A DNA stretch of 41,062 bases from a virus (IMGVR_UViG_2939177367_000003:1-41062), one strand, 5' to 3'; counted from the stretch's first letter, positions 1 to 35,224 are shown. A program made the numbers and translations. The notes: a model not told the origin generated them from the letters alone.

Positions 1-1158
1 ATGCTCACCGTTAAGCAGATTGAAGCAGCAAAGCCGAAAGAAAAACCATACCGCCTTCTCGATGGTAATGGCCTGTACCTTTATGTCCCTGTGTCAGGGA
101 AAAAGGTATGGCAGCTTCGCTACAAGATTGACGGTAAGGAGAAAATCCTGACCGTCGGAAAATATCCGCTTATGACTTTGCAGGAGGCAAGGGATAAAGC
201 ATGGACCGCGAGGAAAGACATCTCGGTTGGCATCGATCCGGTAAAAGCGAAAAAGGCTTCGTCTAACAACAATTCCTTTAGCGCCATTTACAAGGAATGG
301 TACGAGCACAAGAAGCAAGTCTGGTCAGTAGGCTATGCAAATGAACTTGCAAAAATGTTTGATGACGACATTTTACCCATCATCGGCGGCCTTGAAATTC
401 AGGATATTGAGCCGATGCAACTTCTTGAAGTAATCCGCAGATTTGAAGATCGCGGTGCAATGGAGCGAGCCAACAAAGCCCGCAGAAGATGCGGCGAGGT
501 TTTCCGTTACGCTATTGTCACTGGTAGGGCTAAATATAACCCGGCACCTGACCTTGCTGACGCCATGAAGGGATACCGCAAGAAAAACTTCCCGTTTCTT
601 CCTGCAGACCAGATCCCGGCATTTAACAAAGCACTGGCAACATTTTCAGGAAGCATCGTATCGCTCATTGCGACCAAAGTTTTACGCTACACAGCCCTCA
701 GAACAAAAGAGCTTCGTTCCATGCTATGGAAGAACGTCGATTTTGAAAACAGGATTATCACCATCGACGCCAATGTGATGAAGGGACGCAAAATTCATGT
801 GGTTCCTATGTCAGACCAGGTAGTTGAACTTCTCACTACGCTAAGCTCAATCACCAAACCAGTATCAGAGTTTGTTTTTGCCGGGCGCAACGATAAGAAG
901 AAGCCAATTTGCGAGAACGCTGTACTGCTTGTGATCAAACAAATCGGCTATGAAGGTCTGGAAAGCGGTCACGGATTCAGGCATGAATTCAGCACGATTA
1001 TGAACGAGCACGAATGGCCTGCTGATGCTATTGAAGTGCAACTGGCACATGCCAACGGCGGATCTGTGCGCGGGATTTACAACCATGCTCAGTATCTCGA
1101 TAAGCGCAGAGAAATGATGCAGTGGTGGGCGGACTGGCTTGATGGGAAGGTGGGCTAA
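1..1158 (+). CDS. intS: P4-type tyrosine integrase (IntS-like), 385 aa
   Basis: N-terminal AKPKEKPYRLLDGNGLYL and C-terminal HANGGSVRGIYNHAQYLDKRREMMQWWADWLDG motifs typical of P4-family integrases; recalled as matching E. coli IntS. ORF starts at window base 1, so attL lies outside the window. Confidence 0.85.
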   Translation: MLTVKQIEAAKPKEKPYRLLDGNGLYLYVPVSGKKVWQLRYKIDGKEKILTVGKYPLMTLQEARDKAWTARKDISVGIDPVKAKKASSNNNSFSAIYKEWYEHKKQVWSVGYANELAKMFDDDILPIIGGLEIQDIEPMQLLEVIRRFEDRGAMERANKARRRCGEVFRYAIVTGRAKYNPAPDLADAMKGYRKKNFPFLPADQIPAFNKALATFSGSIVSLIATKVLRYTALRTKELRSMLWKNVDFENRIITIDANVMKGRKIHVVPMSDQVVELLTTLSSITKPVSEFVFAGRNDKKKPICENAVLLVIKQIGYEGLESGHGFRHEFSTIMNEHEWPADAIEVQLAHANGGSVRGIYNHAQYLDKRREMMQWWADWLDGKVG

Positions 1159-1300
1159 TCAACTTTGCTATATCTCGGATAGCACAAATCCTTGCAATCC
1201 AGCGCAAAGCTTTGTTTGTCTCATCAACCACAGCAAGTTATCGATCGATTAAGACTTGGATGATAGACTTCATGCCTTTGATTATTAGCTGATAGAAGAA

Positions 1301-1446
1301 ATGTTAAAGCTATTTGCAAAGTACACCTCGATTGGTGTGCTAAACACACTTATACACTGGGTGGTTTTTGGTATTTGTATCTATGCCGCGCATGCAAATC
1401 AGGCTCTGGCAAACTTCGCAGGTTTCGTTGTGGCTGTGAGCTTTAG
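1301..1446 (+). pseudogene. gtrA: gtrA (bactoprenol-linked glucose flippase) 5' fragment, interrupted by IS5 after ~48 codons
   Basis: Translation MLKLFAKYTSIGVLNTLIHWVVFGICIYAAHANQALANFAGFVVAVSF matches the GtrA N-terminus, then runs into the IS5 terminal repeat; the rest of gtrA is absent downstream of the IS. Confidence 0.75.
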
Positions 1447-2642
<1,196 letters not shown>

Positions 2643-2985
2643 CTAGTAGTCATTGAACCAAATAAAAAGCATGAATATGGCACTTAGAGTATTAATCAAT
2701 CGATTACTATACAATCACTAACTCGTTTAACCAGAATTTATTACACTGCGTTATTATTTGTTTCTGAAATTTTTATTATGAGTCCCCCCATCAATTCTCT
2801 GTAAGAGAGTATGTGTATCAAGTAGTAGAATGAATTAACAATCAGCAGGCAGATCACTAGCTAAAATTTATGCAATCAAGCGTCAAAATGTATTATATAT
2901 TTACCAGCCATCTGGTATTCTTACCAAGATCCCCTTAGAATAATCAATAAATTTAATTTTTATTTAAAATATGTAGGCACTACTT

Positions 2986-4020
2986 ATGAGAAATGAAAAA
3001 ATTGATTTTTTAAGATTTCTTGGACTATCACTTATTGTGCTGGCTCATGTTAATCCGCCGTTAATAATTTCACAACTTAGAAATTTTGATGTACCATTAA
3101 TGTTTTTAGTTATGGGAATGTCTTTTTTCATAACTGAGTCAAGGCATACATCAACCTTTAACTACATAGCATCTAGGTTTAAACGGCTTGTAATTCCAAC
3201 ATGGTTTTTTTTCTCGTGTTTTTACATTGTTAGCGAGCTAATCTGGATGTATCAGGGACATTCAGAGTTTAAATACAGTGCAGGAACAATTGCTGCAACT
3301 TTTGCTTTATCTACCGGCATAGGTTATGTATGGGTAATAAGAATTTTTTTTAGTGTATCTATTTTAGCCATACTAACACCCAAATCAATATTAAACGCTT
3401 CCATTTATAAAATAACGTTCCTATCATTCGGCTTTATTATATTAAATACGTATTTCCTATCTTCTTTTTACGAATCTTTAGATGTAAATATAAGAGCTCT
3501 TGAAATAGGAACATTTATATCAAGCACCGCGGTTTATTTATGCGTATTTCTTATTGGATATAAGATATTACAGGAAGACAGAAATTCTATAATATTTATC
3601 TTATTTATAAGCGGTGTTATTTTTACAGTTGTGATGTCGTATTTGATGACACGAGAGGGTCACTTCATTCCTACTCAAGAAGATAAATATCCACCTGGAA
3701 TTTACTATATTTCATTTGCAATATTTATGTCTTTAGCATTTTTTGTGACTTCAGAAAAACTCATAAAAGCATTAAGCTACTCAAAATTATGGGGAATAGT
3801 GATGTTCATTTCATCAAATTCAATCTGGATTTATTTATGGCATATTGCTTTCATCGTTAACATAATAAATTTAAATATTAATTTCATGTTTAAATATATA
3901 CTTGTTTACTCATTTTCTATTGCTATTGTATTTATACAGGTTAAGCTAATTAAAAGCATAACCTCCACAATCAAAGATGATAGAAAGTCAAAGATTTTGA
4001 ATCAAATTTTTACAGGTTAA
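2986..4020 (+). CDS. Integral-membrane acyltransferase (acyltransferase-3 family), putative O-antigen/LPS acetyltransferase
   Basis: N-terminal KIDFLRFLGLSLIVLAHV motif (IDxLRxxxxxxxxxH), about 10 predicted transmembrane segments, very AT-rich gene with AT-rich upstream region; position next to int/gtrA is typical for serotype-conversion genes. Confidence 0.5.
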   Translation: MRNEKIDFLRFLGLSLIVLAHVNPPLIISQLRNFDVPLMFLVMGMSFFITESRHTSTFNYIASRFKRLVIPTWFFFSCFYIVSELIWMYQGHSEFKYSAGTIAATFALSTGIGYVWVIRIFFSVSILAILTPKSILNASIYKITFLSFGFIILNTYFLSSFYESLDVNIRALEIGTFISSTAVYLCVFLIGYKILQEDRNSIIFILFISGVIFTVVMSYLMTREGHFIPTQEDKYPPGIYYISFAIFMSLAFFVTSEKLIKALSYSKLWGIVMFISSNSIWIYLWHIAFIVNIINLNINFMFKYILVYSFSIAIVFIQVKLIKSITSTIKDDRKSKILNQIFTG

Positions 4021-4027
4021 CTAATTA

Positions 4028-4058
4028 GTGATTCGGCGTGATAATTACGCCGAATCAC
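4028..4058 (+). terminator. Stem-loop immediately after the acyltransferase stop
   Basis: Perfect 12-bp inverted repeat GTGATTCGGCGT / ACGCCGAATCAC with 7-nt loop; T-tract weak. Confidence 0.45.
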
Positions 4059-4449
4059 TTCTTAAGAAATATTTGTAAGAATATATTCTCTCCACAGGAA
4101 TATTTGAATAATATGCTATCAATTAATTAAATAACTTACTTTTAGCATGAATAACCCAAGTAAAGAACATCTCCTGAGGAAGTAGCTTTTCAGAATCCCC
4201 CCTACAAGGTTGAGGAATTCCAAGAAAACAAGACAGGCATAGAGTTTTGTGATCTACTGATTGCGCTAACTAATTCAATGAGATCACCTCTATGGCTGCC
4301 CGTAAAGTATGCCAGACTTTTTTCCATAATGATTTAGCTTCCACTCATCAGTATCGACAAAATGCCATTATTGATTCCGCTGCTGCTTAAGTCGGGGCGC
4401 ATATCTTTCTCTTAGCAGCATTGGTCGGCATTTACCCGGCCCTGCTCGA

Positions 4450-30102: not shown

Positions 30103-30242
30103 ACGTCCTCCTTTTCCTGCGGTAGTGGCAACACCCATGTTGGTGTTCTTTCACACCGGAGACACCATCGATTCCAGTAAGGTTGATTTGGTCGGAAGCG
30201 GTTATCTTCTTTGCATTCACCGCACCGATAACATCGCATCAT
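30069..30242 (-). CDS. NinD-like zinc-ribbon protein
   Basis: [36 protein letters not shown]; start taken at the internal Met pair. Confidence 0.4.
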
Positions 30243-30679
30243 GCTGCCCGATCTCCCCATCGCGCTTTCCATTCGAGAGCCAGTCGCGCTTCGTCTGACC
30301 ACTTAACGCCACGCTCTGTACCGAATGCCTGTATAAGCTCTAATAGCTCCGCAAATTCGCCTACACGCATCCTGCTGGTTGACTGGCCTATTACCACAAA
30401 GCCATTCCCGGCAAGGTTAGGAACAACATCCTGCTGCTTTAATGCTGCGGTAAACACACACTTCCAGCTTTCTGCATCCAGCCAGCGACCATGCCATTCA
30501 ACCTGACGAGAGACGTCACCTAAGCAGGCCCATAGCTTCCTGTTTTGGTCTAAGCTGCGGTTGCGTTCCTGAATGGTTACTACGATTGGTTTGGTTGGGT
30601 CTGGAAGAATTTGCTGTACTGCGTGAATAGCGTTTTGCTGATGTGCTGGAGATCGAATTTCAAAGGTTAGTTTTTTCAT
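30239..30679 (-). CDS. ninB: NinB (Orf-family recombination mediator)
   Basis: [59 protein letters not shown]... matches lambda NinB. Confidence 0.85.
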
Positions 30680-30688
30680 GACTTCCCT

Positions 30689-30722
30689 CTCCCCCAAATA
30701 AAAAGGCCTGCGATTACCAGCA
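30689..30722 (-). terminator. tR2-like rho-independent terminator between replication and nin genes
   Basis: Minus-strand hairpin CAGGCCTGC-TGGTAATC-GCAGGCCT followed by UUUUUAUUU. Confidence 0.6.
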
Positions 30723-30756: not shown

Positions 30757-32637
30757 TTAATACTCCGTCACGTTTTCCTGTCGCCACGCCTCGTCATATT
30801 CCGATTTCGGCATATTGGCGATGTAGCTATATGGCGATCCTGATTCAAGTTGCAGGAACTGGTGCGATTGCTCGTCAAGGAACAACGGGACACCACCCTC
30901 CCAACCTTCGCCGTTACGTTGTTTTTCAAGCATCAAAACAGATGCCGGAGATGCCAGTAGCTGTTCGTCCTTCTCTGACATCTTTTCACCACTCTGAACT
31001 CTCTGTAACGCTCTCTCGCGAGCCTTGTTACGCCAGATGATGAAAAGGTTGTCTGTCAGGTCTGTTATCGCTCCAGAGCCTTTTACGTCCATTTTCCCGG
31101 TTGGTTTTTCTTCGCTGTCTCCTTTTCTGGAGTGAGTAACGAGAATGACGTGGGAGTTTGTTTTGTTTTTGAAGTCACAAATCGAGTCAACAAATGCTTT
31201 CTGCCCGTTATAGTCATCGTCACCTATGCCGCATTTCATCAGGCTGTCGATGATGAATAACTGGATGCCGTATCGGCGGCGAGCGTAGTCGAATATTTCG
31301 ATCAGCCTGTCGGCTTTCGCCGTTCCGGTCAGGCCAAACACCCAAAGTCTTTCGTCATAAAATTTAAATGCAGAGTCAATTTCCAGCACTGGCGGCATCT
31401 TGCAGCACGTCGCCTGACGGGTAAGGCGCTTAAGGAGAATACCAGGCTTCAGCTCAAGTGACGCGATGCACGTCTTCACACCCTGACGCATTGCCTCAAG
31501 AGCCATATGCCCGACAACCTCCGTTTTTCCGTGACCGTTCACACCATTGACCAGCGTCAACTCGGCCTCACGGAACTGGAATTTATCTGCCAGAGATTCC
31601 CACGGTGGATTAAACAGATACTGCTGCTTGCCGTAGAAAGCGTTGATAGTGTCCTGGTAAAACTCTCGCGCGCTGTAGAGTTCTTCAGGATCGAAGTAGG
31701 ATGCCGTGCCGATGTACTGCCAGATTTCATCCTCGGTAACACCGTTCATCAGGCATTCGTTGATGTCTTTGTACGGCAGAGTAACAAGACGGCAACGATG
31801 TTCACCGAGTCGGCTTGCGATTTCCCTTGCGGCTTCACGACCAACATCATCAACGTCCATCGAGATGAATATTTCCTCAAACCTGTCGAGGTTGTGATAC
31901 TCAAACTCAATCCACTGCTGTTTAGCGCCTTTCCCGCCACCAAACGGCACGGATAACGCCGAGATGCCATATTGCGCATAGCTCATACAATCAATTTCGC
32001 CTTCGCAAAGTACAACCGCCCTCACGCCAGCGTCCAGAGCCTGCCATCCGAACAGACAAGGTTCGCAATCACCTTCTGCCATAATGACTTTCTTCCCGTC
32101 CGGGCGCTCAGTGCTGATTCGCTTGACCTGCAACAACTCACCATCGCGTTTGTACGGAATCACCAGAGCATCCAGTTCCAGCTCTCCATTCCACACCTTG
32201 CCGCTGACAACCTCGTAGCGCTTTACGATTTCTGGCGATATGCCACGCGATTGCAGGTACTCAAGATGGGATTCTGTTCTGGTAACGTAGCGGGCGATTT
32301 TCTTGCGATCAGGTCTGGAGAATTTCTTCTCACGTTTGGCATCGAAATGGTGATCGTCATCCTTGATACCGAGAAAGGCTTTCGCTTCCTGCATAGCCTG
32401 ATGCAGGTTAATTCCACGACATGCCATCCACAAATCAAGCATGTCACCGCCGTCTCCCTCAGCGAAATCAGCCCATTTTTTCTTGCCGCTAAGGTTGACC
32501 TTAAGGCTGTTTCCCTTGTCACCGTTGACGTTACCGGCAACCCACTCATGCCCCTCTTTCTTGCCGTTTGGCAACAGGTGCGGAGCCACCCTGTCAACCT
32601 GCGCCCAAAGCAGGTCGCTAAGTTCACTTGGTGTCAT
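30757..32637 (-). CDS. Bifunctional DNA primase / DnaB-like helicase
   Basis: 626 aa; N-terminal primase-like region and C-terminal P-loop RecA/DnaB-like segment (NGVNGHGKTEVVGHMALEAMRQG). Confidence 0.7.
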   Translation of the reverse strand: MTPSELSDLLWAQVDRVAPHLLPNGKKEGHEWVAGNVNGDKGNSLKVNLSGKKKWADFAEGDGGDMLDLWMACRGINLHQAMQEAKAFLGIKDDDHHFDAKREKKFSRPDRKKIARYVTRTESHLEYLQSRGISPEIVKRYEVVSGKVWNGELELDALVIPYKRDGELLQVKRISTERPDGKKVIMAEGDCEPCLFGWQALDAGVRAVVLCEGEIDCMSYAQYGISALSVPFGGGKGAKQQWIEFEYHNLDRFEEIFISMDVDDVGREAAREIASRLGEHRCRLVTLPYKDINECLMNGVTEDEIWQYIGTASYFDPEELYSAREFYQDTINAFYGKQQYLFNPPWESLADKFQFREAELTLVNGVNGHGKTEVVGHMALEAMRQGVKTCIASLELKPGILLKRLTRQATCCKMPPVLEIDSAFKFYDERLWVFGLTGTAKADRLIEIFDYARRRYGIQLFIIDSLMKCGIGDDDYNGQKAFVDSICDFKNKTNSHVILVTHSRKGDSEEKPTGKMDVKGSGAITDLTDNLFIIWRNKARERALQRVQSGEKMSEKDEQLLASPASVLMLEKQRNGEGWEGGVPLFLDEQSHQFLQLESGSPYSYIANMPKSEYDEAWRQENVTEY

Positions 32638-32744
32638 GATTCCCTCAGATTGAGATTTTTAAACCAGAAATCGACAAACGAAATACTTAACCAGCCGTGG
32701 TTATAACCAGCGACCAGTAGCGATTTGATTTTTGATTTCATGGT

Positions 32745-33605
32745 TCACCTGTCGAAAAACACGTAGCCAGTTTTCGATACGGTGATTGCGGATGATGGTT
32801 TGGATTGTGGTTGAATAGTTTCTGGCTTCTCGTCGTTCCAGCGTTGACCGTTCAGGTAGCTCGATGGTAACAACCTGTCGAATCCGAACTGCTTACCATT
32901 CCTGCATGCGATGTCTTCTGCCAGCATCGTGGCAAACTCGCTTGCCGTACCCCTGGTAGTTTTACGCCATTCCCTGAACTGTGTTCTGAATGCTGAAGCT
33001 GCGTTTTTCTTCCCGGCTTTCCGCATGCCTGCACACCAGAATATTTCCTCGAATGCCTTGTCGGTTTCTTCGTGACGGTCAGATGATTTTTCACACTCCG
33101 TCCGAACACTTTCGGACATAGTGTTTTTATTATTTCTTTTTTCTTTTGTAATAGTTTCTTTTGTGTGTCCCTGTTTTGGTGACAGCGCTGTCACCGTTTT
33201 GGTGACACTTTTTGTCACCAATGTAGTGACATTATCACCAGAGTAGTGACACCCTTCGATTTGCCATTCCTCGATGTTCTTGTTAGGCCCGATTTGCTGG
33301 CCTTCGCGAAGGATAACCTTCATCGCGATAAGCTCATTCTTGGCCTTGTTTACCTTCTGTCTTGGCAGCCTGGTAATTTGAGCTAACTGACTATCAGAGA
33401 TGCGATCCATCTTTTTACCGTAGCCGTATGTTTTACGGCATATGGCGTGGGCAACCTTGCTCTGATTTTTCGTTAAATCTGCGCCGATAAGCTCTTCATA
33501 CAGGGCATTTGCAAGACGGGTATAACCATCTTCAACTTCTGCCACACGACGCTCCACAGGCCGTTGTGAAGGCCTTAAATGTGTTACGGTTGCAAGATTA
33601 CTCAT
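32745..33605 (-). CDS. Replication initiator protein, lambda O-like N-terminal domain
   Basis: [49 protein letters not shown] matches the replication protein O N-terminal family; iterons inside the gene. Confidence 0.7.
33116..33255. repeat. Candidate origin of replication: AT-rich tract plus iterons inside the O-like gene
   Basis: AT-rich 33116-33170; perfect 18-bp palindrome GGTGACAGCGCTGTCACC (33178-33195); four or more further GTGACA/TGTCAC repeats at ~10-13 bp spacing. Confidence 0.5.
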
Positions 33606-33744
33606 GACCTTTCTCCTTCTGCATCAGCTTCACCTTTTCCAACTCAGCCCGGAATCGACCAGGCTGCTTGAAGCTGGACAGGAAGCGATCACGTAGTATG
33701 TGTTTGTGAATTTTGTCCTGGTAAGGACTGAGTTGTTTTGTCAT
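33598..33744 (-). CDS. Small ORF (48 aa) between cII and the O-like gene
   Basis: ATG preceded by AGGAG RBS; stop overlaps the O-like start; not in the supplied ORF track (below length cutoff). Confidence 0.3.
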
Positions 33745-33776: not shown

Positions 33777-34073
33777 TCAGAATTGCATATCAATTTGCTT
33801 AAAATCCTCGGTGGCGGCCGGGGATTTTTTCTTTGTGATTTCATCAAGCGCATACTTAAAAGCCCTGCTAATCGGACTGATGTCTGATGCCATTCCGAAA
33901 GCACACAAGACCGAAGCAATAAATCTCCAGTCCGTTCTGCTTATCTTCGATTCATGACAGCCAATCATCTTTGCCAGACCGCGCTGGGTAAGCGTTGACA
34001 GGTTGATGAGTAAATCAGTTTCAGCGCGATCAATTTCTCGCTGTGTTGGCTTGCTGTAGCTTGCTTGTGCCAT
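33777..34073 (-). CDS. cII: CII-like transcriptional activator
   Basis: C-terminus [19 protein letters not shown] parallels lambda CII TNKKRPAATERSEQIQMEF; central SKISRTDW vs SQISRWKRDW. Confidence 0.7.
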
Positions 34074-34188: not shown

Positions 34189-34374
34189 TTATGCCGCTTG
34201 GCGGTAAGCACTTTCTTGATACTTCAGGGCGCCAGCTGTAACGATTTCCAATCGATAGGCGTCTTTCTCTGGGATAACTTCTTTCCACTGAGAGACTGCT
34301 GCATCGCTAATGCCTAGTGCTTTAGCAACAGCACGCTGGGTTCCGAAGTGGTCAATAACATCTTTTTTGTACAT
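34189..34374 (-). CDS. cro: Cro repressor (HTH)
   Basis: 61 aa; HTH QRAVAKALGISDAAVSQW; divergent from the repressor gene. Confidence 0.75.
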   Translation of the reverse strand: MYKKDVIDHFGTQRAVAKALGISDAAVSQWKEVIPEKDAYRLEIVTAGALKYQESAYRQAA

Positions 34375-34388
34375 AGACTCGCTCCGAA

Positions 34389-34454
34389 ATTAAAGAACAC
34401 TTAAATTATCCACCAAAGGAATCTTAAGTCAAGTTTATTTAAGATGTCTTAACT
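34389..34454. promoter_or_regulatory. OR operator region with PR promoter (P22-type 18-bp operators)
   Basis: Sites ATTAAAGAACACTTAAAT (34389-34406) and ATTTAAGATGTCTTAACT (34437-34454) fit ANTNAAG-N4-CTTNANT; PR on minus strand: -35 TTGACT (34427-34432), 16-bp spacer, -10 GATAAT (34405-34410). Confidence 0.6.
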
Positions 34455-35105
34455 ATGAATACACAACTGATGGGTGAGCGTATTCGCGCTCGCAGAAAAG
34501 AACTCAAGATTAGGCAGGCTGCCCTTGGCAAGATGGTTGGCGTGTCTAATGTTGCTATTTCCCAATGGGAGCGATCTGAAACTGAGCCCAATGGCGAAAA
34601 CCTATTGGCCTTAGCCAAGGCTTTGCAGTGCTCCCCTGATTACCTGTTGAAAGGAGAGGATAGTCTTTCAAACATTGCCTATCACAGCAGGCATGATCCA
34701 AGAGGTTCGTATCCTCTAATTAGTTGGGTAAGCGCAGGATGTTGGATGGAAGCTGTAGAGCCATATCATAGGCGTGCAATAGATAACTGGTACGACACAA
34801 CGGTAGATTGTTCTGAAGACTCTTTTTGGCTCGACGTTAAAGGCGATTCAATGACTGCCCCGGCAGGACTGAGTATTCCTGAGGGGATGATTATTCTCGT
34901 CGACCCAGAAGTCGAACCACGTAATGGAAAGCTGGTAGTCGCCAAACTTGAAGGGGAAAACGAGGCGACATTCAAAAAGTTAGTTATTGATGCCGGTAGA
35001 AAATTCCTGAAACCACTCAATCCACAATACCCAATGATTGAAATCAATGGGAACTGTAAAATCATTGGCGTTGTCGTTGATGCCAAGCTAGCAAACCTTC
35101 CTTAA
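34455..35105 (+). CDS. c2: Prophage repressor, P22 C2-type (HTH plus LexA-like S24 autopeptidase domain)
   Basis: Translation MNTQLMGERIRARRKELKIRQAALGKMVGVSNVAISQWERSETEPNGENLLALAKALQCSPDYLL... matches P22 C2 as recalled. Confidence 0.9.
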   Translation: MNTQLMGERIRARRKELKIRQAALGKMVGVSNVAISQWERSETEPNGENLLALAKALQCSPDYLLKGEDSLSNIAYHSRHDPRGSYPLISWVSAGCWMEAVEPYHRRAIDNWYDTTVDCSEDSFWLDVKGDSMTAPAGLSIPEGMIILVDPEVEPRNGKLVVAKLEGENEATFKKLVIDAGRKFLKPLNPQYPMIEINGNCKIIGVVVDAKLANLP

Positions 35106-35129: not shown

Positions 35130-35168
35130 CCCGTTAAAAATCAAAGACAAACTAAATTCACGCCCATA

Positions 35169-35224
35169 AAATTAAGTTTTCTTCAAAAATGCACTTGACC
35201 AATAAATTAAGAAGTCTTAAATTT
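35169..35224 (+). promoter_or_regulatory. OL operators with PL promoter
   Basis: Operator-consensus sites AATTAAGTTTTCTTCAAA (35169-35186) and AATTAAGAAGTCTTAAAT (35205-35222); -35 TTGACC (35195-35200), 17-bp spacer, -10 TAAATT. Confidence 0.5.

Follow-up and report, generated by a model that had tools for sequence, protein, structure and literature searches.

The origin of replication of phage lambda (ori-lambda) comprises four iterons and a 38-bp AT-rich sequence, which all lie within the O gene (PMC3349717). The iterons, ITN1-4, are footprinted by the O protein (PMC7466680). The lambda initiator belongs to the Pfam family Phage_rep_O, its gene is located downstream of pR, cro and cII and carries the origin between the parts that encode its N- and C-terminal domains, and its partner P is a loader of the host DnaB helicase. 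Phage P22 likewise encodes an O-family initiator in gene 18, which holds four repeats of approximately 20 bp that differ from the lambda ones (PMC8022706), and its partner is a DnaB-type helicase, the product of gene 12. In the Salmonella phages ES18 and epsilon34 the N-terminal regions of the initiator are 94% identical to lambda gpO (PMC2629481), and the GenBank record of ES18 (AY736146) describes the neighbouring gp61 as a primase/helicase similar to T7 gene 4. A rep_origin is annotated by similarity in the records of both ES18, where it is called 'similar to lambda ori', and P22 (BK000583).

Here a locus of this kind is described, with all calls on the origin made by computation from the sequence of a 41,062-nt stretch of viral DNA that is referred to, at its full length, as the window. 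Over its left half the window has 98% identity with the structural and gtr region of the Shigella phages SfII and SfI, so that the whole is a temperate phage or prophage of mosaic build from the E. coli/Shigella group. The segment from 29 to 36 kb constitutes a lambdoid immunity and replication region with its rightward operon on the minus strand (Table 1) and, as in lambda, the putative origin is situated within the initiator gene, flanked by the parts coding for the two domains. It is very probable (roughly 85%) that this region is a theta, i.e. bidirectional, replication origin built like ori-lambda, including the proposed mechanism of O binding, melting and helicase recruitment. The features computed here that carry this reading are the anatomy of the locus, the positional homology to ITN1-4, the covariation of iterons and recognition helix, conservation at the DNA level, an AT tract of low duplex stability and the type of the partner protein. 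Judging from the gene order, a transcript from the pR-like promoter crosses cro, cII and O and hence the origin, and by analogy with lambda transcription from this promoter may help to activate the origin. GC skew was set aside for mapping the origin, as over the 41 kb it tracks the direction of transcription.

Table 1. Features of the immunity and replication region, with positions counted from the first nucleotide of the window
Feature	Position	Strand	Detail
cI-type repressor	34455-35105	+	HTH_3 and Peptidase_S24
pR-like promoter	34405-34432	-	10/12 consensus matches
cro	34189-34374	-	P22_Cro
cII	33777-34073	-	Phage_CII
48-aa ORF	33598-33744	-	named DUF2740 family protein in RefSeq E. coli genomes
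O-family replication initiator, 286 aa	32745-33605	-	Phage_rep_O at aa 20-114, E 1.1e-37; PHROG 277 'replication initiation O-like'
N-terminal winged-helix DNA-binding domain, aa 1-118 (predicted)	33252-33605	-	AF2 model, covariation
Recognition helix, aa 82-94 (predicted)	33324-33362	-	helix 3 of the modelled winged helix
Iteron 1, ITN1 equivalent	33233-33251	-	TGTCACTACTCTGGTGATA in O orientation; offset -85 from the anchor, as lambda ITN1
Iteron 2	33213-33231	-	TGTCACTACATTGGTGACA in O orientation; offset -65
Iteron 3, perfect 7+7 dyad	33189-33207	-	TGTCACCAAAACGGTGACA in O orientation; offset -41
Iteron 4	33166-33184	-	TGTCACCAAAACAGGGACA in O orientation; offset -18
18-bp perfect palindrome GGTGACAGCGCTGTCACC	33178-33195		right half of iteron 4 and left half of iteron 3 in plus-strand order, GCGC junction
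46-bp core common to every mosaic type	33133-33178		bounded by the end of the ES18-type matches (33178) and the start of the PhiR12-type ones (33133)
Conserved anchor ACACAAAAGA	33157-33166		opens the AT tract
AT-rich tract, predicted DNA unwinding element	33120-33165	-	80% A+T, 46 bp
Imperfect palindrome, core GTCCGAA-N4-TTCGGAC	33093-33124		distal edge of the AT tract
C-terminal domain, aa 165-286 (family match aa 157-286)	32745-33113	-	PHROG 33384
35-aa ORF between initiator and primase-helicase, ES18 gp60 equivalent	32634-32741	-	phrog_21848, 4e-26
Toprim and DnaB-like helicase, T7 gp4/Twinkle family, 626 aa	30757-32637	-	Toprim_2, AAA_25, DnaB_C
NinB	30239-30697	-	NinB

The original prediction placed a candidate origin inside the O-like initiator gene, as in lambda, on account of an AT-rich tract, an 18-bp palindrome and several GTGACA/TGTCAC repeats at roughly helical spacing. 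Repeat finding bears out the last of these: six such hexamers, of the 28 in the 41-kb window, occur in 33179-33251, with gaps of 11-12 bp between half-sites and one exception of 8, so that the spacing was fairly described. The hexamers parse as four 19-bp dyad-symmetric repeats, TGTCAC(C/T)-N5-(G/A)GTGACA, that occupy 33166-33251 with start-to-start distances of 23, 24 and 20, have dyad symmetry scores from 5/7 to 7/7 and show at most one mismatch to TGTCAC-N7-GTGACA. When up to two mismatches are allowed this motif has five matches in the window against 1.66 expected, four of which fall inside 86 bp where, by arithmetic from the window-wide expectation, about 0.0035 would be expected; a scan of the window for other clusters of three or more closely spaced repeats saw none. 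In the 286-aa initiator the iterons correspond to aa 119-147, between the Phage_rep_O match and the C-domain family match. Iteron 4 has a degenerate distal half-site, like lambda ITN4, and lies partly within the core that is common to all mosaic types. The palindrome of the original prediction is indeed present and perfect, but was rejected as a functional unit, since the register with the lambda iterons puts the dyad centres in the A/T spacers and leaves the palindrome as the junction of iterons 3 and 4. The same GCGC junction is found in Proteus phage V3 and in a Yersinia contig. A reading of iteron 4 as a LexA box was rejected by inspection because it has CTG-N9-CAG, not CTG-N10-CAG.

The comparison took in the O regions of 13 phages and of four contigs, bacterial or metagenomic, with N-domain identities of 38-100%. 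With respect to the conserved anchor, dyads are located at -85, -65, -41 and -18 in the window, lambda, ES18, PhiR12_1, Proteus V3, Omnitron and Midgardsormr38, and the same register is found in phiEt88, P22, mEp213, PhiR26_1, Yersinia phage 21.09 and a Yersinia contig. In Pocitis76 the dyads keep this register with offsets shifted by 1, and the Klebsiella and metagenome contigs retain those at -65, -41 and -18, the Klebsiella contig with extra copies upstream. Thus 14 loci besides the window and lambda have dyads at identical or almost identical offsets. Counted with lambda, 12 lambdoid phages other than the window, and two of the four contigs, have the repeats at these offsets. In lambda the dyads at these offsets are the footprinted iterons ITN1-4 (PMC7466680), and because both the offsets and the spacing (20, 24 and 23 in O orientation) are the same, the repeats of the window are positional homologues of the lambda iterons. 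The repeats are accordingly conserved in homologous initiator genes, as expected of a lambda-like origin, and the rep_origin features of the ES18 and P22 records stand at the homologous position. Short O-like ORFs of 144-157 aa (L096 and L099) were considered as a possible naturally split initiator; L099 is simply frameshifted within the iterons and L096 is masked by N at this place.

The AT-rich tract, also part of the original prediction, adjoins the iterons on their promoter-distal side and is A-rich on the O-coding strand (31 T among 46 nucleotides on the plus strand). It forms a local stability minimum. Of the 40-50-bp stretches of the window it is one of the five to eight with the lowest stability, and those that are less stable still all come from a single foreign AT-rich island (2.9-4.1 kb). 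The tract is kept in 15 of the 16 other loci readable there, and as CACTATAAAGA in Pseudomonas phage PAJU2, and the anchor is common to all enterobacterial loci readable there, the Serratia contig L096 being masked by N. A scan of IMG/VR with the whole O protein yielded 80 loci that are all 98-100% identical, which makes them of no use for covariation, and they served for a count of polymorphism only. Their 67 distinct alleles of the O gene are variable at 95 of 861 sites, against none of the 46 sites in the AT tract where about 5 would be expected, and half-site changes are rare, each occurring in a single locus of the 80. At the distal edge of the tract, and partly beyond the interval of the original prediction, lies an imperfect palindrome whose predicted single-stranded hairpin has a free energy of -11.9 kcal/mol (z -6.7). 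The palindrome also occurs in ES18, and from its place in the sequence this element is taken as the positional counterpart of the palindrome beside the lambda AT tract.

The N-terminal domain of the initiator is predicted to be a winged helix. An AF2 model built from a 30-sequence alignment (pLDDT 73, exceeding 90 over the wHTH core at aa 71-100) replaced a single-sequence AlphaFold model with a pLDDT of 48.6, and has the topology H-b-H-H-b-b (H46-58, b, H71-78, H82-94, b98-101, b104-107). Among the matches listed in a Foldseek search with this model almost all are winged-helix regulators of the CRP, MarR and CodY types, with none at E <= 0.001, and a sequence-profile search of the PDB gave marginal wHTH matches (E 0.03-0.8).

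Comparison of related origin regions, which comprised 17 phylogenetically non-independent loci, revealed that the repeats co-vary with the DNA-binding domain of the initiator and that the covarying segment is helix 3 of the model. The helix RLPRQKVN(K/V/A)(A/V)K accompanies the half-site TGTCAC(C/T) in the window, PhiR12_1, Proteus V3 and the Yersinia, Klebsiella and metagenome contigs, that is in all seven loci where both are readable, and the Serratia contig has the same motif. Within this class N-domain identity falls to 66% and the spacers differ (CAAAAC, CACGGT, TACCGT), with the half-site being kept. RISRSKANIAK is found together with TGTTACC or TGTTCCC (GGGAACA) in Omnitron, Midgardsormr38 and phiEt88, GLSRQNVNKAK with TGTCTCC in Pocitis76, KLPVKRCNEAK with TCCCTC in lambda and ES18, GMAPTKCSTAK and GILPHKCSAAK with TTTACC in P22 and PhiR26_1, and GIHHTHVC(T/A)AK with TTAGCC in Yersinia phage 21.09 and mEp213. 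As read from the alignments and the model, the sequence of the half-site goes with the predicted recognition helix of the N-domain and follows neither the C-domain nor the partner gene. Records matching the N-domain or the O region number 358 for phages and 516 for E. coli.

The C-terminal domain has no Pfam match. It is at least 95% identical in ES18, epsilon34, g341c, Oslo, Min27 and phi24B, and indeed in every phage with this type of helicase, whatever the N-domain. The partner was predicted to be a primase-helicase as opposed to a lambda P-type loader, and this proved right: a search with the 626-aa protein yields T7 gp4 structures at E 2.5e-23 (e.g. 5ikn_D) and 5e-23 (6n7i_A), the latter alignment pairing residues 191-539 with gp4 137-507, and human or other Twinkle (8e2l) at E 7e-14. 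Toprim motifs EGEID and DVDD and a Walker A motif GHGKT are visible in its sequence, and it is 94% identical to ES18 gp61, annotated as 'putative primase/helicase; similar to phage T7 gene 4'. By these matches the partner is a Toprim RNA-polymerase domain fused to a hexameric helicase domain of the RecA/DnaB type, and what stands here is not the P-type loader of host DnaB that defines a lambda O-P module in the strict sense. The match to the PDB leaves gp4 residues 1-136 uncovered, and an N-terminal Cys4 zinc ribbon, the domain needed for primer-site recognition, was sought in the partner and found to be absent: its first 150 residues contain a single Cys, and CxxC pairs are lacking. Since this zinc ribbon of T7 gp4 is missing, the primase activity of the partner is uncertain. 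In the Min27 homologue an insertion of approximately 330 aa begins right after GHGK of the Walker A motif and ends in HN before the T, and by its sequence looks like an intein.

Natural exchanges separate the two halves of the module. The window-type N-domain and iterons are combined with a gp4-type primase-helicase in Sf101, mEp043, SEN22 and 720R6, with lambda P in the PhiR12 phages and with a DnaB-type helicase in Proteus V3. Conversely, the C-domain and primase-helicase of the window are found with a lambda-type N-domain and iterons in ES18, epsilon34 and g341c. The core shared by all these types consists of the distal half of iteron 4 and the AT tract, and from the ends of the matches it is read as the crossover zone between a module of N-domain and iterons and a module of C-domain and partner.

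It is proposed that dimers of the O-family initiator would bind the four iterons (TGTCACC-N5-GGTGACA) via the recognition helix of the winged-helix N-domain, and that the iteron-bound initiator would form a bent nucleoprotein complex, the 'O-some', around which the DNA is wrapped. The O-some would melt the adjoining 46-bp AT tract on supercoiled DNA, aided by rightward transcription from pR, and the ES18-type C-domain of the initiator would then recruit the phage's own T7 gp4-like Toprim-helicase, not the lambda P-DnaB complex. Initiator binding, melting of the tract, recruitment of the helicase and firing of the origin are attributed to this locus by analogy with lambda. Somewhat against the odds, the C-domain may even dock the gp4/Twinkle-type Toprim-helicase straight onto the melted AT tract free of any loader, with the strong, module-specific hairpin at 33093-33124 as a loading or priming site. 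If so, initiation would need neither host DnaB nor DnaC, and possibly not DnaG, and would combine melting of the origin in the lambda style with assembly of the replisome in the T7 style, a hybrid not known to have been reconstituted for any phage. The mechanism would also involve the primase domain lacking a zinc ribbon and the 35-aa ORF. A literature search found no report, in any phage, of an O-type initiator recruiting a gp4-type helicase.

The iterons could bind the initiator and replication nevertheless start elsewhere, the repeats then serving autoregulation or titration/handcuffing or being a relic, and the gp4-type primase-helicase starting at another site, for example one opened by transcription as in T7. 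The partner does belong to the T7 gp4 family, and in T7 it is transcription and no initiator that opens the origin. Lambda iterons carried on a plasmid are able to titrate O and to silence replication (PMC3349717). Mere binding, however, needs no AT tract (PMC7466680, PMC3349717), so that conservation of the tract argues for unwinding, and what is found in register here is the whole ori-lambda architecture with iterons, invariant AT tract and palindrome. The absence of a second repeat cluster from the window and the joint travel of the O C-domain with the primase-helicase, at identities of at least 95% across otherwise different phages, also speak against initiation at another site, which is regarded as unlikely.

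Two further readings deny the repeats a role in binding the initiator. The region does code for a VT-rich linker, and the repeats might be a by-product of a repetitive peptide with no function at the DNA level; yet this gene reads one and the same DNA motif in each of the three frames (TGT CAC as C-H, GTC ACN as V-T and TCA CCA as S-P), and the Klebsiella and metagenome relatives retain the half-sites in the DNA, and their offsets, although they read the motif as CHHGSD. This reading in three frames marks the repeat as a DNA feature and not a peptide repeat, and as the half-sites also follow the recognition helix of the N-domain, a peptide origin is scarcely credible. The palindromes and the T-runs on the plus strand may alternatively be seen as intrinsic terminators of antisense transcription into O, or as structures of the O mRNA, and a consensus scan flags plus-strand sites at 33100-33117, 33177-33196 and 33189-33207. 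The scan has seven sites against 2.1 expected, but this excess is explained by the iterons being dyads that adjoin a T-rich tract, the stems are short, and no promoter-like site was found that would feed plus-strand transcription here. Conservation, furthermore, follows the protein-DNA covariation, in which half-sites change with helix 3, and not stem compensation, and Rfam at gathering thresholds has no match in the whole window; terminators or mRNA structures are thus highly improbable.

The lambda-like origin that remains the preferred reading is, by its sequence features, of the canonical lambdoid type found in textbooks, with an iteron specificity that was previously unannotated, and a full-text literature search for the iteron strings found no paper with these sequences. 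The textbook picture of lambdoid origins is not changed by these results. Nor is it new for an O-type initiator to be paired with a primase-helicase, as ES18 gp59 and gp61 are so annotated in AY736146. What is gained are predicted origin coordinates and an iteron consensus for a module of E. coli and of Shigella/Salmonella serotype-converting or P22-like phages, near-identical copies of which occur in phages deposited as such (Sf101, mEp043, SEN22 and vB_EcoP-720R6) and in at least 169 complete E. coli genomes. The pairs of helix and half-site, amounting to six or seven specificity classes within one fixed geometry, form a natural data set for the recognition code of winged helices and can serve to predict which co-resident prophages would be incompatible in replication or would cross-activate each other. 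The combination of O with a gp4-type helicase also exists in Stx2 phages such as phi24B and Min27, where it is a candidate route to replication independent of the host helicase. The 'Eru' replication regions of Stx phages in the literature are other modules.

With the iteron origins of plasmids the locus shares a predicted winged-helix initiator, repeated sites beside an AT-rich unwinding element and the logic of titration/handcuffing, but plasmid iterons are usually direct, non-palindromic, bound by monomers and located outside the rep gene. In lambda the initiator is of the same Pfam family as here, its four 19-bp dyad iterons stand at the offsets of the window with a spacing of 20, 24 and 23, and they are followed by a near-identical AT tract, ACACAAAAGA.ACTATTACAAAAGAAAAAAGAAA, and then by a palindrome. 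This palindrome, however, has another sequence and is weaker (-6.7 against -11.9 kcal/mol), the half-site is TCCCTC in lambda and TGTCACC in the window, and the N-domains are 53% identical with a different helix 3. The C-domain of lambda O is unrelated in sequence to that of the window, and its P loader of host DnaB contrasts with the gp4-type Toprim-helicase. P22 gene 18 has its four dyad repeats in the register of the window and an AT tract, and differs in its TTTACC half-sites, its DnaB-type helicase partner and a CCCCC..GGGGG palindrome. Sf101, mEp043, SEN22 and vB_EcoP-720R6 are 98-99% identical to the window over the whole O region including the iterons; the Sf101 record (KJ832078) annotates the O gene but no rep_origin, and the Sf101 paper does not discuss an origin. 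ES18 (gp59-gp60-gp61), epsilon34 and g341c encode an O C-domain that is 97-99% identical to that of the window (97.5% in ES18) together with the same 35-aa ORF, and these modules have the same AT tract and palindrome. In contrast to the window, ES18 and epsilon34 have a lambda-type N-domain with TCCCTC iterons, and the point at which the two types switch lies inside iteron 4.

Modules comprising the N-domain and iterons of the O-family initiator appear to be shuffled against modules comprising its C-domain and the helicase, with the origin itself as the putative crossover zone. All mosaic types share a 46-bp core, made up of the distal half of iteron 4 together with the AT tract, and the homology breakpoints coincide with both of its ends. 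The AT tract is bordered at its distal end by a palindrome that differs with the type of partner encoded downstream of the initiator gene, as seen from comparison of the window with lambda (L089), P22 (L090) and the loci L091 and L086-L088. In P22, L091 and L086-L088 it is positioned immediately beyond the AT tract. Since its placement is conserved while its sequence is module-specific, this arrangement suggests a putative role linked to the helicase or its loader.

Features of the window and of comparison loci, with the partner-specific palindromes
Feature	Location	Strand	Details
Core common to all mosaic types	window 33133-33178		46 bp
Palindrome, primase-helicase type	window 33093-33124		GTCCGAA-N4-TTCGGAC; -11.9 kcal/mol, z -6.7
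Palindrome, lambda-P type	lambda (L089) about 1972-1995		ATTCGTCAGAGAATTCTGGCGAAT; -6.7 kcal/mol
Palindrome, DnaB type	directly past the AT tract		CCCCC(T)..(A)GGGGG
gp4-family Toprim-helicase	window 30757-32637	-	
Primase-helicase homologue	Min27 (L004, EU311208) 456-3038	-	annotated 'P', 860 aa
ORF between initiator and primase-helicase	window 32634-32741	-	35 aa
ORF overlapping the O start	window 33598-33744	-	48 aa
Terminator-like hairpin	window 33801-33828	+	12 pairs and T-run
Direct repeats	window 35164-35221		two of 23 nt, 35 bp between
AT-rich island	window 2900-4150		
SfII/SfI-matching stretch	window 1215-24360		

Besides the canonical four dyads, the relative on a Klebsiella contig (L098) has further TGTCAC-type copies upstream of them, one of which starts at offset -103 from the conserved anchor that opens the AT tract, and is in this respect reminiscent of the six-iteron Stx phages. 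In a metagenome contig (L099) the O ORF is frameshifted within the iterons, such that a 157-aa ORF stops in the AT tract and the remainder runs on in another frame, which could reflect an assembly error or a pseudogene.

The initiator gene is flanked by two small ORFs. The 35-aa ORF overlaps the start codon of the helicase gene and corresponds to gp60 of the Salmonella phage ES18, with a match to phrog_21848 at E 4e-26. It appears to be co-inherited with the initiator/primase-helicase module. The 48-aa ORF has counterparts in P22 orf48 and ES18 gp58. Its RefSeq name in E. coli genomes is DUF2740 family protein. In PHROG 1913 and in the phage records of RefSeq it is given as 'tail protein', probably an annotation error because its position between cII and O is fixed.

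The Toprim-helicase displays the acidic Toprim motifs EGEID and DVDD. Its PDB match starts at gp4 residue 137, and the Cys4 zinc ribbon is absent, with a single cysteine in the N-terminal 150 aa. Residues 1-371 of the Min27 homologue show 98% identity, and an intein-like insertion of about 330 aa interrupts the P-loop, following immediately past the Walker A motif GHGK and ending at ...THN|TEVVG.

In the left part of the window, the AT-rich island is the most AT-rich and least stable DNA of the whole window. It falls inside the stretch matching SfII/SfI, whose annotation there includes gtr serotype-conversion genes, and is probably a horizontally acquired moron.

Within the immunity region, a strong terminator-like hairpin lies opposite the 3' end of cII, in antisense orientation. 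Rfam returned zero matches within the window at gathering thresholds. The hairpin occupies the site of the oop antisense RNA terminator in lambda and P22. Downstream of the repressor gene, the two direct repeats are found at the place of the OL operators of ES18 and are probably OL operators themselves.
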